Part shown: positions 1 to 43,800 of the stretch, piece after piece
Position numbering within the stretch: the first letter of the stretch is position 1
Layout of the letters: every line of letters starts with the position of its first letter
NCBI RefSeq assembly: GCF_050920415.1
Contig: NZ_CP169309.1
DNA: 64,000 nucleotides
Source: Escherichia coli
GTDB lineage: Bacteria; Pseudomonadota; Gammaproteobacteria; Enterobacterales; Enterobacteriaceae
Reading direction: 5' to 3' (one strand)
Notes under the pieces: model-generated
What the model saw: the letters and a program-made list of their open reading frames with translations, nothing else
Databases searched by the model: none
What the model was told of the DNA's origin: nothing
Made by a program: the position numbers and the translations under genes

Positions 1-1047
<1,047 letters not shown>

Positions 1048-33842: not shown

Positions 33843-33873
33843 AAGTGAAAAAGGGGGCCATATGCAGGCCCCC
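33843..33873 (-). terminator. Intrinsic terminator or attenuator in the rpsB-tsf spacer, ~50 nt upstream of tsf
   Basis: Minus-strand GGGGGCC-TGCATAT-GGCCCCC perfect 7-bp GC stem followed by TTTTTCACTTTT. Confidence 0.8.
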
Positions 33874-34047
33874 TAACCAAACGTGTACTACCTGGTCTAT
33901 AAGGGCTCTCCCCCTTCATATTTCGCGCCGCAGATGCGTTGTCTTCGCTCGCTCATCCCGGTCACTTACTGATGTAAGCTCCCGGGAATTCTCGAGCTTG
34001 CCGCCTTTCTGCAACTCGAACTATTTTGGGGGAGTTATCAAGCCTTA

Positions 34048-34995
<948 letters not shown>

Positions 34996-35978: not shown

Positions 35979-38669
<2,691 letters not shown>

Positions 38670-38699
38670 TGTGTTTACTGATATGAAAAGAGTTTAACA

Positions 38700-39524
38700 A
38701 TGCAGCAGTTACAGAACATTATTGAAACCGCTTTTGAACGCCGTGCCGAGATCACCCCAGCCAATGCAGACACCGTTACCCGCGAAGCGGTAAATCAGGT
38801 GATCGCCCTGCTGGATTCCGGCGCACTGCGTGTTGCGGAAAAAATTGACGGTCAGTGGGTGACGCATCAGTGGTTGAAAAAAGCGGTGCTGCTCTCTTTC
38901 CGTATTAATGATAATCAGGTGATCGAAGGGGCAGAAAGCCGCTACTTCGACAAAGTGCCGATGAAATTCGCTAACTACGATGAAGCACGTTTCCAGAAAG
39001 AAGGCTTCCGCGTCGTGCCACCAGCGGCAGTGCGTCAGGGCGCGTTCATTGCCCGTAACACCGTGCTGATGCCGTCTTACGTCAACATCGGCGCATATGT
39101 TGATGAAGGCACCATGGTTGATACCTGGGCGACCGTCGGTTCCTGTGCGCAGATTGGTAAAAACGTCCACCTTTCCGGTGGCGTGGGTATCGGCGGCGTG
39201 CTGGAGCCGCTGCAGGCTAACCCGACCATTATTGAAGATAACTGCTTCATCGGCGCACGCTCTGAAGTGGTTGAAGGGGTGATTGTCGAAGAAGGTTCCG
39301 TCATCTCTATGGGCGTATACATTGGTCAGAGCACCCGTATTTACGACCGTGAAACCGGCGAAATCCACTACGGTCGCGTTCCGGCTGGTTCGGTGGTTGT
39401 GTCAGGTAATCTGCCGTCGAAAGATGGCAAATACAGCCTCTACTGTGCGGTTATCGTTAAGAAAGTTGACGCGAAAACTCGCGGCAAAGTCGGCATTAAC
39501 GAACTGCTACGCACCATCGACTAA
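38700..39524 (+). CDS. dapD: Tetrahydrodipicolinate N-succinyltransferase
   Basis: 274-aa [51 protein letters not shown].... Confidence 0.97.
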
Positions 39525-39533
39525 AAGTCAGTA

Positions 39534-39562
39534 CACGGGCAGCATGAAGCTGCCCGTTTTTT
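39534..39562 (+). terminator. Rho-independent terminator downstream of dapD
   Basis: ACGGGCAGC-ATGAA-GCTGCCCGT hairpin followed by TTTTTTT. Confidence 0.85.
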
Positions 39563-39576
39563 TACAGGGATGAATG

Positions 39577-40389
39577 ATGATCACACGCAGGCGTTTTTTA
39601 CAGGCTGCCGCCGCGACGTTAACGGTGAGTTCAGGTTTCGGTTATATGCATTACCTGGAACCCGGCTGGCTTGAATTAAGCCATCACCGCTTCGCCTTTT
39701 TTGAAGAAAAAGCCGCACCATTCAAAATTCTGTTTCTGGCCGATCTCCATTACTCTCGTTTTGTTCCTTTAAGCCTGATTTCTGACGCTATTGTCCTTGG
39801 CGTAGCGCAAAAACCTGATTTGATTTTGCTGGGTGGCGATTATGTTTTATTTGATATGCCGCTGAATTTTTCGGCGTTCAGTGACGTACTCTCTCCCCTT
39901 GCCAAATGTGCACCGACATTTGCCTGTTTTGGCAATCACGATCACCCCGTGGGTACAGAGAAAAATCGCTTAATTGGCGAGGCGTTAAAATCGGCGGGGA
40001 TCACTGTGTTGTTTAACCAGGCAACGGTAATCGCCACATCAAAACGGCAATTTGAACTGGTTGGCACTGGTGATTTATGGGCCGGACAATGCAAACCACC
40101 TCCCGCCAGCGAAGCAAATCTGCCTCGTCTGGTGCTGGCACATAATCCCGACAGCAAAGAAGTCATACGTGATGAACCCTGGGATCTGATGCTGTGCGGC
40201 CATACTCACGGCGGGCAACTGCGCGTACCGTTGGTTGGTGAACCTTTTGCCCCTGTCGAAGATAAACGTTACGTCGCCGGATTAAATGCCTTTGGCGAAC
40301 GACACATCTACACAACCCGTGGCGTGGGCAGTTTGTATGGTTTGCGTCTGAACTGCCGCCCGGAAGTAACGATGCTGGAACTGGTGTAG
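39577..40389 (+). CDS. yaeI: Calcineurin-like metallophosphoesterase with twin-arginine signal peptide
   Basis: 270-aa protein MITRRRFLQAAAATLTVSSG... (RRxFL Tat motif). Metallophosphoesterase motifs ADLHY, GGDYV, GNHD, GHTHGG. Confidence 0.88.
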   Translation: MITRRRFLQAAAATLTVSSGFGYMHYLEPGWLELSHHRFAFFEEKAAPFKILFLADLHYSRFVPLSLISDAIVLGVAQKPDLILLGGDYVLFDMPLNFSAFSDVLSPLAKCAPTFACFGNHDHPVGTEKNRLIGEALKSAGITVLFNQATVIATSKRQFELVGTGDLWAGQCKPPPASEANLPRLVLAHNPDSKEVIRDEPWDLMLCGHTHGGQLRVPLVGEPFAPVEDKRYVAGLNAFGERHIYTTRGVGSLYGLRLNCRPEVTMLELV

Positions 40390-40550
40390 AACGTGAATTT
40401 TATCGCCAGAATAAAGCAGGTAATTTTTTGATTTTTACGCCATGATAGAAGTCTGGAAGAAAAAGGCTTTCTGCGATCACAGTCGAGCCGGGCGGGCCAG
40501 GCCAAATGCTAAAATAAGCACAATTTACTGACTCATTTTGAGGTAACGCT

Positions 40551-40937
40551 ATGTACGACAATCTGAAAAGTCTGGGTATTACCAATCCTGAAGAAATTGA
40601 TCGTTACAGCCTCCGGCAGGAAGCCAACAACGATATTCTGAAAATCTATTTCCAGAAAGACAAAGGCGAGTTTTTCGCCAAGAGCGTGAAATTTAAATAT
40701 CCACGTCAGCGCAAAACGGTAGTCGCTGATGGTGTGGGTCAAGGTTATAAAGAAGTACAGGAAATCAGCCCGAACCTGCGGTATATCATTGATGAACTTG
40801 ATCAAATCTGCCAGCGTGACCGCAGCGAAGTTGATCTTAAGCGTAAGATCCTCGACGACTTACGTCACCTGGAGTCAGTAGTAACCAATAAGATCAGCGA
40901 GATTGAAGCCGATCTGGAAAAACTGACGCGTAAATAA
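40551..40937 (+). CDS. yaeH: Conserved protein YaeH (UPF0325), function unknown
   Basis: 128-aa [45 protein letters not shown].... Confidence 0.88.
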
Positions 40938-40950
40938 TGTCATTCTGTGG

Positions 40951-40980
40951 GCCGGGTAAAGTCTCACCCGGCTGTAATTT
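40951..40980. terminator. Hairpin between convergent yaeH and cdaR
   Basis: GCCGGGT-AAAGTCTC-ACCCGGC stem followed by TGTAATTTTGT on the plus strand. Confidence 0.5.
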
Positions 40981-40990
40981 TGTAATCGAC

Positions 40991-42148
40991 CTACCGCTCT
41001 TCATCCAGTTGTAACGCCACATACAGCAGCAACCTGTCATCAAAATTGCCCAAATCAAGCCCGGTCAGTTCCGATATACGATTAAGCCGATACTCAAGAG
41101 TATTACGATGAATAAACAACGCCTTTGACGTTGCCAGCGGTTGCACATTGTGGCGAAACCACGCCGCCAGCGTTCGCCGCAGCAAGCCGTTATTGTCCAT
41201 CGCTTTCAGCCGCGCCAGCGGTCGCGCCAGTTCGTTGGCCTGCCAGTCGCCACGCAAACTGTCGAGCAACACAGGCAACATCAGATCCTGATAAAAATAG
41301 CAGCGACTTTCGGGCATCCGCTGTTTACCCACCACCATCGTCGTTTTCGCCGTACGATAAGAGCGGGCAATACTGCCTGGTCCGGTAAAATAGTTACCCA
41401 GCGAAACGCGAAAACGTAGCTGACCATACTCTTTCATGCGGGCAATCAGTTGTTCAACTCGCTTACGATGATCTTCTGCATCCCAGCGCCCAAACGAATT
41501 CAACGCCGGTTTCAACACCACCATTTCGGTCAGTGAAACAATCGCCACCAGATTATTACGCTCGGGTGTAGTCAGCGCGTTTTGCAGTTGCTGTAACTCC
41601 GCCATTGCGCTGTCCACGCCAAGTTGACCGCTATCGACCTCAACAATAGCCACCACTCGCGGTTGATTGAGATCGATCCCCAGCCGTTGCGCCCATTCAG
41701 TGAGTGCAGGAGTATTCTCCTCCGCCTGAATCAGGTTCATCACCAGTTCTTCCCGCAAACGGCTATCCTGCGCCAACAGATGCATCAACCGCGACTGTTC
41801 CAGCATCATTTCAGCCGTCATGCAGACCAGTTCGCCATATTTACGCAGATTCTCTGGTTCACCAGTCAGGCCGATTACGCCGACAATTTCACCTTCCAGC
41901 CGTAATGGTAGATTAATCCCCTGCCGCACACCGTGCAGATGACGTGCCACCGCGTCATCGATATCAACTACTCGTCCCTGTGAAAGTACCAGCAATGCAC
42001 CTTCGTGCAATTCACCAATACGCTCACGATCGCCGCTGCCGATAATACGCCCGCGGGCATCCATTACGTTAATATTGGTATCAATGATGCGCATGGTGCG
42101 CGCCACGATATCCTGCGCCATTTTGGTATCAAGATGCCAGCCAGCCAT
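40991..42148 (-). CDS. cdaR: Carbohydrate diacid regulator CdaR (SdaR)
   Basis: 385-aa protein MAGWHLDTKMAQDIVARTMRII... with C-terminal HTH. The track ORF is extended 6 codons upstream. Confidence 0.93.
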   Translation of the reverse strand: MAGWHLDTKMAQDIVARTMRIIDTNINVMDARGRIIGSGDRERIGELHEGALLVLSQGRVVDIDDAVARHLHGVRQGINLPLRLEGEIVGVIGLTGEPENLRKYGELVCMTAEMMLEQSRLMHLLAQDSRLREELVMNLIQAEENTPALTEWAQRLGIDLNQPRVVAIVEVDSGQLGVDSAMAELQQLQNALTTPERNNLVAIVSLTEMVVLKPALNSFGRWDAEDHRKRVEQLIARMKEYGQLRFRVSLGNYFTGPGSIARSYRTAKTTMVVGKQRMPESRCYFYQDLMLPVLLDSLRGDWQANELARPLARLKAMDNNGLLRRTLAAWFRHNVQPLATSKALFIHRNTLEYRLNRISELTGLDLGNFDDRLLLYVALQLDEER

Positions 42149-42302: not shown

Positions 42303-43727
42303 TTACTGCATTAACAGATAGATGGTGCTGTCGCCGCGCTGAATATTCAGTGCCAGCACAGACGGTTTGCTGTCGAGAACTTTACGCAGTTCAGCGATGT
42401 TTTTCACTGCCTGCTGGTTCGCACCAATAATCACATCACCTTTCTTCAGGCCGATCTGCGCAGCCGGAGTGCCCGTTTTCACGTTGTTCACCACCACGCC
42501 CTGATCTTTGCCTTTGTTGCTCATCTCAGCGCCTTCAATGCCGTTGAAGATGGTGCTGGAATCAACCTGATTCTGGCTGCTCTGCTGCAGTTCCAGGTTC
42601 ACGTTAACCTGCTTCCCGTCGCGCAGTAAGCCCAGGGTCAGTTTGCTGCCTACCGGCATAGTGCCCACCTGAGCACGCAGTGCGGCAAAGCTGCTGATTG
42701 GCTTACCGTTCAGTGAGGTGATCACATCACCCGCTTTAATGCCCGCTTTCGCGGCGGAAGAGTTCGGCAGAACCTGGCTTACGAAAGCACCGCGCTGGGC
42801 GTCAACTTTCATCGCTTTCGCCAGATCGGAGTTCAGCTCAGTGCCCATAATACCCAGCTCACCACGTTTCACCTGGCCGTATTCCACCATCTGCGAGGTC
42901 AGGTTTTTCACCATGTTGCTCGGGATAGCAAAACCGATACCGATGTTTCCGCCGTCCGGTGCGAGGATCGCGGTGTTGATACCAATCAGTTCGCCGTTCA
43001 GGTTAACCAGCGCGCCACCAGAGTTACCCCGGTTGATCGCAGCATCGGTCTGGATGAAGTTTTCATAGTTTTCGGCATTCAGACCGCTACGCCCCAGCGC
43101 AGAGACAATCCCGGAAGTTACCGTCTCGCCCAGACCAAACGGGTTACCAATTGCTACGGTGTAATCACCCACGCGCAGTGCATCAGAATCCGCCATCTTA
43201 ATTGCGGTCAGATTTTTCGGGTTCTGGATCTGGATCAGCGCGATATCAGAGCGCGGATCTTTGCCAACCATCTTCGCGTCGAACTTACGACCATCGCTCA
43301 GCTGGACTTTAATCACCGTCGCGTTATCAACAACGTGGTTGTTGGTGACGACATAGCCTTTATCGGCATCAATGATGACGCCGGAACCCAGCGCCATGAA
43401 TTTCTGTTGTTGGCCGCCGCCATTACCGCCCTGGCCCCCCTGGCAGAACGGAGAGCTCTGGAACGGAGAACCTTCCTGGCAGAACGGAGAATCATCACCG
43501 AAGAACTGCTGGAAATTACGCGGCATACGCGGCGTATTAACGGTTGTGCTACCTTCTACGTTAATGCTGACCACTGAAGGCATCACCTTTTCGAGCATCG
43601 GTGCAAGGCTTGGCATCTGCTGGGCTGTCGTTGCTGAAGAAGTCTCAGCCGCCGTTGCAGAGAGCGGAGATAACGCCAAACCTAAACTCAGAGCCAGTGC
43701 ACTCAGTGCTAATGTGGTTTTTTTCAT
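42303..43727 (-). CDS. degP: Periplasmic serine endoprotease DegP (HtrA)
   Basis: 474-aa ORF with signal peptide, trypsin-like domain (GNSGGAL), Q/G-rich loop and two PDZ domains. Confidence 0.97.
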   Translation of the reverse strand: MKKTTLALSALALSLGLALSPLSATAAETSSATTAQQMPSLAPMLEKVMPSVVSINVEGSTTVNTPRMPRNFQQFFGDDSPFCQEGSPFQSSPFCQGGQGGNGGGQQQKFMALGSGVIIDADKGYVVTNNHVVDNATVIKVQLSDGRKFDAKMVGKDPRSDIALIQIQNPKNLTAIKMADSDALRVGDYTVAIGNPFGLGETVTSGIVSALGRSGLNAENYENFIQTDAAINRGNSGGALVNLNGELIGINTAILAPDGGNIGIGFAIPSNMVKNLTSQMVEYGQVKRGELGIMGTELNSDLAKAMKVDAQRGAFVSQVLPNSSAAKAGIKAGDVITSLNGKPISSFAALRAQVGTMPVGSKLTLGLLRDGKQVNVNLELQQSSQNQVDSSTIFNGIEGAEMSNKGKDQGVVVNNVKTGTPAAQIGLKKGDVIIGANQQAVKNIAELRKVLDSKPSVLALNIQRGDSTIYLLMQ

Positions 43728-43772
43728 GTATTTCAGTCTCGATTAACAGATAACGCAAAATTGCTGTGTTCT

Positions 43773-43800
43773 TCAGATTCGTTTTATAGCGCGAAGTTCC
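43773..43800 (-). promoter_or_regulatory. sigmaE-type promoter of degP
   Basis: Minus-strand GGAACTT, 16-nt spacer, TCTGA, matching the sigmaE -35/-10 consensus, about 45-70 nt upstream of the degP start. Confidence 0.65.

Follow-up and report, generated by a model that had tools for sequence, protein, structure and literature searches.

Does the gene behind dapD in Escherichia coli encode an enzyme exported by the Tat pathway, and what kind of bond would that enzyme hydrolyse? A sequence-only reading of a 64,000-nucleotide stretch of E. coli DNA (the window, whose positions are used throughout) had identified the gene as yaeI and its product as a predicted Tat-targeted periplasmic phosphoesterase of undefined substrate. 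We conclude that YaeI is probably a Tat-exported, binuclear-metal phosphoesterase of the YkuE/YaeI/LpxG clade, periplasmic, accessory in role and expressed by read-through. As first stated, the description is correct but not new and matters little, the gene being named and annotated, its Tat-type signal already known from the literature, and the substrate gap long-standing and small.

The yaeI gene and its locus

The list of open reading frames places a frame at 39574-40389 on the plus strand, which also carries the signal, motif, terminator and Shine-Dalgarno features given below, and this frame opens with ATGATG. Translation from the second ATG gives a protein of 270 amino acids, and the coding sequence accordingly runs from 39577 to 40389, stop codon included. 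RefSeq/PGAP annotation uses the same start in NZ_CP169399.1 (WP_000633011.1, 'phosphodiesterase YaeI'), the sequence of E. coli MFDS1022581, which is 100% identical to the window over 39300-40600. A putative Shine-Dalgarno (SD) core, AGGG (39566-39569), lies 7 nt upstream of this ATG. A start at 39574 was rejected because the SD core would be too near and because the annotation uses 39577.

The protein matched the NCBIfam YaeI equivalog NF008460 over residues 1-270 with 508 bits, against a cut-off of 188. The order map-glnD-dapD-yaeI-yaeH, with cdaR and degP on the opposite strand, is the same in K-12, and the position of yaeI between dapD and yaeH is kept in the window, K-12, E. albertii and Superficieibacter. 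RefSeq annotation and the glnD-dapD-yaeI-yaeH context thus bear out the earlier identification: the frame corresponds to yaeI, which is already catalogued in E. coli. K-12 YaeI (b0164, NP_414706.2) has the same locus, length, RR motif and catalytic motifs and is 91% identical at the amino acid level, with 24 differences, mainly in residues 1-197 (through M197I).

A complete active site in a large family

Four quoted metallophosphoesterase motifs had suggested the function of the protein, and all four are present, with catalytic residues that are invariant in 143 homologues. They are motif I, D56-L-H58 (39742-39750); motif II, G87-D88 (39835-39840; GDY is G87-D88-Y89); motif III, G119-N120-H121-D122 (39931-39942); and motif V, G208-H209-T210-H211 (40198-40209; GHTHGG is residues 208-213). 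The homologues form alignment A1, in which identity to YaeI runs from 90% down to ~33%. Invariant among them are D56, H58, G87, D88, G119, N120, H121, H189, G208, H209 and H211, while D122, R4, R5 and E28 are each kept in at least 90%.

The fifth metallophosphoesterase motif, IV, is also present, although the earlier reading did not list it: it consists of H189 (40141-40143) in AHNPD.

By its five metal-binding motifs and its fold, YaeI belongs to the calcineurin-like metallophosphoesterase superfamily. The match is far better than chance could give: Pfam Metallophos (PF00149) returned E=1.8e-12. The sole other NCBIfam match was to LpxG. Of 1.84 billion cluster representatives searched exhaustively, 6481 were recovered at E<=1e-10 as members of the YaeI/YkuE/LpxG clade.

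An AlphaFold2 model of YaeI built on A1 reached a pLDDT of 96.8 and a pTM of 0.92. The predicted fold gives only generic metallophosphoesterase matches: solved metallophosphoesterases (Mre11/SbcD, GpdQ, Rv0805, Lmo2642 and PhoD) are remote, with Foldseek TM-scores of ~0.45-0.55. Searching the PDB with the single YaeI sequence returned no match, and the YaeI profile retrieved remote Mre11/SbcD-type matches (best E 1e-7) covering motifs I-III only. Since the PDB searches gave nothing beyond these three motifs, the clade is without a solved structure.

A class III cyclic-nucleotide phosphodiesterase (CpdA/Icc/Rv0805) was considered and rejected, YaeI being no nearer to these enzymes than to any other metallophosphoesterase. 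The YaeI profile matched Rv0805/Icc remotely and locally (E=0.003-0.004 over ~50-90 profile positions), and the fold match to class III phosphodiesterases was no better than to other metallophosphoesterases.

The natural substrate is indeed undefined, as had been stated. One homologue carries the source name 'phosphodiesterase with model substrate bis-pNPP', and activity on bis-pNPP, from the work of Kuznetsova et al. in 2005, is said to be the only one reported for E. coli YaeI. Gene neighbourhoods outside Enterobacteriaceae are unrelated to one another; those of distant homologues that we inspected (a Logan contig, and an Opitutus contig with its Logan duplicate) had nothing in common and offered no clue to the substrate.

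A predicted Tat signal conserved across the family

The N-terminus of YaeI reads MITRRRFLQAAAATL, just as it had been quoted. Residues 1-22 (39577-39642) form a predicted Tat-type signal peptide with the n-region MIT and the h-region FLQAAAATLTVSSGFG. The claimed twin-arginine motif is there: T3-R4-R5-R6-F7-L8-Q9 (39583-39603), read from the sequence and conserved in homologues, fits the S/T-R-R-x-F-L-K Tat consensus. A conserved junction motif, Y23-M-H-Y-L-E28-P29-G-W31-L-E33 (39643-39675), follows directly after the h-region.

The conserved E-P after the hydrophobic segment served as the anchor for aligning 204 full-length homologues. RRx-hydrophobic-hydrophobic occurred in 187 of them (92%), 18-32 residues upstream of the E-P with a mode of 25. 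In the 17 homologues without RR, the 15-residue segment before the junction had a mean Kyte-Doolittle (KD) value of 1.94, compared with 1.16 in those with RR (Mann-Whitney p=4e-8). Such an inverse relation is expected for Tat versus Sec signals. The corresponding segment of YaeI itself, with a mean KD of 0.63, is among the least hydrophobic of the set, and the hydrophobicity of the h-region is low overall (KD 0.63-1.08). Several of the proteins without RR nonetheless exceed the cut-off of the YaeI model and are therefore true family members, which would have switched to a Sec-type anchor. At the level of sequence, this trade-off indicates that the catalytic domain would be extracytoplasmic across the family.

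At the junction, Y is found in 85% of the homologues, R or H in 72%, P in 84% and W in 78%, the E standing at 100% as the alignment anchor. The motif is common to YaeI, B. subtilis YkuE and a metagenomic LpxG-like protein (P0233).

Homology to YkuE, a proven Tat substrate, extends through the signal. YaeI and YkuE (P0343) aligned over residues 2-269 with 33% identity (E=5e-41), SRRQFLK pairing with TRRRFLQ and GYARYLEP with GYMHYLEP. The real YkuE sequences (P0341, P0343) had been retrieved by an approximate query, 76% correct, used as bait only. YkuE is a substrate of TatAyCy and needs Tat specifically (PMC3827258, PMC6708511). Its Tat signal peptide is cleavable, it lacks transmembrane domains, and the Tat literature has aligned it with 'the shorter homologue from E. 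coli' (PMC5449189). It is a Mn/Zn-dependent phosphatase, for which Tat export fits metal loading before export (PMC10550928). RR conservation, homology to YkuE and the complete motif set together support the earlier description of a Tat-targeted periplasmic phosphoesterase, as a prediction. We infer from them that YaeI itself depends on Tat, takes up metal before export and resides in the periplasm.

A candidate cleavage site at the end of the signal

The sequence G20-F21-G22 before Y23 is a candidate signal-peptidase site that satisfies the -3/-1 rule; S-S-G before F fits as well, and no classic A-x-A precedes Y23. Among the homologues, Ala, Gly or Ser occupies -1 and -3 before the conserved Tyr in ~75% of sequences, compared with 54% at -2, and small-x-small stands directly before this Tyr in 70% of RR-bearing and 25% of RR-less proteins. 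Such patterns arise easily by composition, since the whole h-region is Ala/Gly-rich. The hydrophobic segment adjoins the junction Y-x-R/H-x-x-E-P-x-W-L-E with no variable linker. In the AlphaFold model, residues 4-30 form one continuous, confident helix that runs straight into the first beta-strand, and a helix so predicted would suit a signal peptide and an uncleaved anchor equally well. By analogy with YkuE, we favour a cleaved signal in YaeI over the main rival, an uncleaved anchor.

Probable expression by read-through of the dapD terminator

A terminator scan located a strong intrinsic terminator of dapD at 39535-39563, ending 3 nt before the SD core of yaeI. Its hairpin, a 9-bp stem (7 of the pairs being G-C) closed by a 5-nt loop, is followed by a U7 tract, and the RNA folds with -18.1 kcal/mol (z=-2.9). 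The layout of terminator, SD and ATG is the same in K-12 and E. albertii; Superficieibacter has a hairpin without a U-tract at the corresponding place.

A sigma-70 scan upstream of yaeI found no promoter. The exact sigma-E pattern matched only the degP promoter (43773-43799), and a relaxed sigma-E scan of 37500-39580 yielded three poor candidates with 3 mismatches each. The gene has been assigned to the rpoE regulon, with Rezuchova 2003 as one of the sources given (PMC5105897). Since our scans found no sigma-E site upstream of yaeI, this membership is not confirmed from the sequence. With the dapD terminator ending so close to the ribosome-binding site, there is no room for a promoter of its own, and yaeI is therefore probably expressed in Escherichia at a low level, by read-through of that terminator.

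Loss and divergence of yaeI

A sensitive blastn search detected yaeI in 2084 of 5426 complete E. coli genomes; it is missing from the other 3342 (~62%). In genomes without it, such as B2 strain 536 and O157:H7, an unrelated filler of ~135 nt lies between dapD and yaeH and replaces window positions ~39563-40405. Neither yaeI nor the filler of strain 536 gave a match in an Rfam scan. Because dapD-yaeI-yaeH is kept in E. albertii and Superficieibacter, the gene is ancestral and has been lost from the genomes without it. Truncated YaeI clusters with many members (221 aa, 66 members; 172 aa, 94 members; 157 aa, 53 members) point to ongoing decay in some lineages.

The allele in the window is rare, being at least 95% identical in only 13 of the 5426 genomes. 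Sliding comparison with K-12 showed deep allelic divergence over 39500-40200, a block assigned to neither strand, with 82-94% nucleotide identity per 100-nt window; identity rises to mostly 95-100% in the flanks and to 98-100% over the final ~190 nt of yaeI. Within the divergent block dS relative to K-12 is 0.44, about 3-fold the 0.14-0.17 of dapD, glnD and yaeH. Between alleles, dN/dS of yaeI is 0.12-0.15, compared with 0-0.02 in the flanking genes, so that selection on yaeI is purifying but relaxed, as for a gene that still functions in the genomes that keep it. The window thus carries a deeply diverged, mosaic yaeI allele that is still under purifying selection.

Enterobacterial homologues were patchy (Pseudocitrobacter, Superficieibacter and one Salmonella record). 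The next nearest relatives among the matches with a taxon name, with 44-56% identity, belong to Verrucomicrobiota.

Alternative explanations

Two alternatives concern how YaeI leaves the cytoplasm and where it stays. It may be exported via Sec or by both routes, in which case RR would not be strictly required. Some family members carry a hydrophobic Sec-type segment instead of RR and are evidently still functional, and YaeI has only a His at the position after the h-region that is R in 52% of homologues; with only His in place of the basic residue that could serve as a Sec-avoidance signal, Sec promiscuity of YaeI is possible as far as the sequence goes. Tullman-Ercek et al. reportedly tested ~29 E. 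coli RR peptides in 2007, that of YaeI among them, and are said to have found the majority promiscuous with reporter proteins. Against this, RR is kept in ~92% of homologues together with low hydrophobicity, the YaeI h-region lies at the low end of that range, and YkuE depends on Tat specifically (PMC3827258, PMC6708511). We therefore consider Sec or dual export unlikely. An uncleaved anchor deserves more weight, although on balance we doubt it: here the RR segment would be inserted by Tat and retained, and the catalytic domain would lie on the periplasmic face of the inner membrane, acting there on a phosphodiester or diphosphate substrate linked to a lipid, with chemistry that would match that of LpxG on the periplasmic side. 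The absence of a linker before the junction, the nearly fixed RR-to-EP spacing and the continuous helix of the model would all suit an anchor, and RR-less members, with their strongly hydrophobic segments and mostly without small-x-small before the Tyr, look like true anchors. Moreover, polytopic YkuE-type variants keep the RR-preceded segment as a fourth transmembrane domain (PMC5449189), and LpxG is membrane-associated via its N-terminal helix (PMC4807358). However, a 15-residue mean as low as that of YaeI is poor for a stable transmembrane helix, and G20-F21-G22 before Y23 obeys the -3/-1 rule. YkuE, the nearest proven case, is cleaved, and the short E. coli and B. subtilis forms were termed 'soluble variants' (PMC5449189). 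YaeI also lacks the LpxG-specific insertion of ~45-50 residues.

Two further alternatives concern function. Electronic annotation with 'lipid A biosynthesis' would make YaeI a cytoplasm-facing UDP-2,3-diacylglucosamine diphosphatase, a second enzyme of the LpxH/LpxG type, which we regard as extremely unlikely. The homology behind it is real: the LpxG model NF033458 matched YaeI with E=5.9e-36, and P0233, which scores 306 bits on that model, is 33% identical to YaeI, from residue 26 onward only. Yet YaeI reached only 124 bits where the model requires 350, and the match fell into two pieces (the best pairing residues 134-269 with model positions 175-318) that skip approximately model positions 120-175, a segment missing from YaeI. 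Membership of YaeI in LpxG was rejected on this score and on the absent insertion. Unlike YaeI with its canonical RR, P0233 lacks a twin arginine; acidic residues occur in its N-terminal helix, and GNHD is followed by ~44 residues that YaeI does not have. Nor can yaeI be a housekeeping lipid A enzyme, as it is missing from ~62% of complete E. coli genomes. Moreover, lpxH is essential in K-12, although K-12 has yaeI. After a transposon screen for T7 resistance, yaeI was treated as an LPS gene on the basis of annotation (PMC7414163), and the 'lipid A biosynthesis' label seems to stem from annotation transfer and not from evidence. LpxG itself is a membrane-associated enzyme whose substrate, UDP-2,3-diacylglucosamine, is cytoplasmic (PMC4807358); YaeI may share with it the bond chemistry (phosphodiester/pyrophosphate) but not the substrate. 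We also hold it to be very unlikely that yaeI is a relic in the course of being lost, with hardly any expression behind the dapD terminator and no current function. Its absence from 3342 genomes, the many-membered truncated clusters, the strong terminator with no recognisable promoter directly upstream, and a dN/dS about ten times that of neighbouring genes all speak for such decay. But a dN/dS of 0.12-0.15, at dS values reaching 0.5, clearly reflects purifying selection. The reading frame, RR motif and catalytic residues are intact in the window, K-12, E. albertii and more distant enterobacteria, and the arrangement of terminator, SD and ATG is itself kept in E. albertii.

Proposed route and significance

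We thus return to YaeI as a probable Tat-exported periplasmic phosphoesterase. Its catalytic domain would fold in the cytoplasm and there take up two metal ions, of the Mn, Fe or Zn type. T-R-R-R-F-L-Q and the weakly hydrophobic h-region, made of Ala, Thr, Ser and Gly, would then be recognised by TatABC, and the folded enzyme would cross the inner membrane. Signal peptidase I would probably cut near the bond between G22 and Y23, leaving the mature enzyme in the periplasm, near the outer face of the inner membrane, where it would hydrolyse a phosphodiester or pyrophosphate (NDP-X type) bond by attack of a metal-activated water, as its relatives do. Being accessory and dispensable in most E. coli lineages, yaeI is likely to have a conditional rather than a housekeeping role.

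More speculatively, YaeI and its many RR-bearing relatives could work in the periplasm close to the membrane, as pyrophosphatases or phosphodiesterases of an envelope intermediate linked to a lipid and so as outward-facing counterparts of LpxG; we think it improbable. Lipid A or undecaprenyl diphosphate species, or a phospho-substituent of an envelope glycan, would then be candidate substrates. If this were true, the presence, absence or allele type of yaeI would tune envelope chemistry and phage/host interactions between E. coli lineages, and such tuning would explain both the deep allelic divergence and the repeated loss. The loss from most E. coli and the old mosaic alleles suggest a conditional, possibly niche-specific envelope function. 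LpxG is the only member of the YaeI/YkuE/LpxG clade with a known physiological substrate, and YaeI is a useful target, as its substrate, once defined, would annotate thousands of exported enzymes.

Comparison with known systems

YaeI is equally distant from YkuE and LpxG. With YkuE it shares the S/T-R-R-x-F-L signal, the G-Y-x-x-Y-L-E-P junction and all five metal-binding motifs. YkuE scores 148 bits on the YaeI equivalog, under the cut-off of 188, and is therefore a relative of YaeI rather than its orthologue. It is bound to the cell wall of a Gram-positive host, whereas YaeI would end up in the periplasm. Polytopic YkuE-like enzymes, with four transmembrane domains and dual Sec/Tat insertion (Tooke et al. 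2017), have the same catalytic domain as YaeI, and their twin arginine stands directly before the last hydrophobic segment (PMC5449189); YaeI differs from them in having a single RR segment and no upstream transmembrane domains.

LpxG of Chlamydia belongs to the same calcineurin-like clade, with ~33% identity from the E-P junction onward, and is a Mn-dependent enzyme that attacks a pyrophosphate bond (PMC4807358). YaeI, in contrast, is without the ~45-50-residue segment after GNHD. In place of the non-RR membrane helix of LpxG it has an RR export signal, and its gene is dispensable.

Distribution of yaeI among E. coli genomes

yaeI lies outside the E. coli core genome; of 5426 complete genomes of the species, sensitive blastn detected the gene in only 2084. 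In the remaining genomes the gap between dapD and yaeH is occupied by ∼135 nt of unrelated filler, as seen when window 39563-40405 is compared with the corresponding loci of E. coli 536 and O157:H7. Since E. albertii and Superficieibacter retain yaeI at the same locus, its absence from E. coli genomes reflects loss.

Shortened YaeI proteins of 153-221 aa form large clusters of up to 94 members (proteins P0017, P0024, P0029, P0030 and P0031). Since some of them are encoded on long contigs, yaeI may have been disrupted or have acquired premature stops in certain lineages of E. coli/Shigella. In strain EC0026B, yaeI is divided between two places.

A mosaic yaeI allele

The yaeI allele of the window is a rare, mosaic one. 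Between 39500 and 40200, identity to K-12 is 82-94% per 100-nt window; the flanks of this block are mostly 95-100% identical, and the final ∼190 nt of yaeI 98-100%. Within the block, dS reaches 0.44 versus ∼0.15 in neighbouring genes, with dN/dS ∼0.14. Together, the identity pattern and these rates suggest exchange of old yaeI alleles by recombination.

The dapD-yaeI junction

Window positions 39535-39579 span both the intrinsic terminator of dapD (-18.1 kcal/mol, U7) and the yaeI start. Because the terminator ends 3 nt short of the yaeI Shine-Dalgarno core, no space is left for a yaeI promoter. This layout is common to the window, K-12 and E. albertii. The terminator U-tract is interrupted in yaeI-less strains (CCCGATTGCTTTCTGG).

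Other features of the window

Upstream of degP, on the minus strand, lie a sigma-E-type promoter (GAACTT-N16-TCTGA, 43773-43799) and the HtrA 5′UTR thermometer (Rfam, 43722-43767). Rfam gathering-level matches on the same strand correspond to an incomplete 16S rRNA at the edge of the window (1-1047), CssrA sRNA (33853-33962) and t44 RNA (34801-34887). The yaeH-cdaR intergenic region (40900-41064) carries an indel of ∼32 nt relative to K-12, with local identity of 71-87%.

Homologues lacking the twin arginine

A minority of the YaeI family (among them P0148, P0168, P0195, P0206, P0225 and P0259) is devoid of the twin arginine. The N-terminal helix of these homologues is strongly hydrophobic, and in most cases no peptidase site immediately precedes the conserved Tyr (Y23 in YaeI). 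Ahead of the same catalytic domain, the Tat signal appears to have been exchanged in evolution for a Sec-type membrane anchor.
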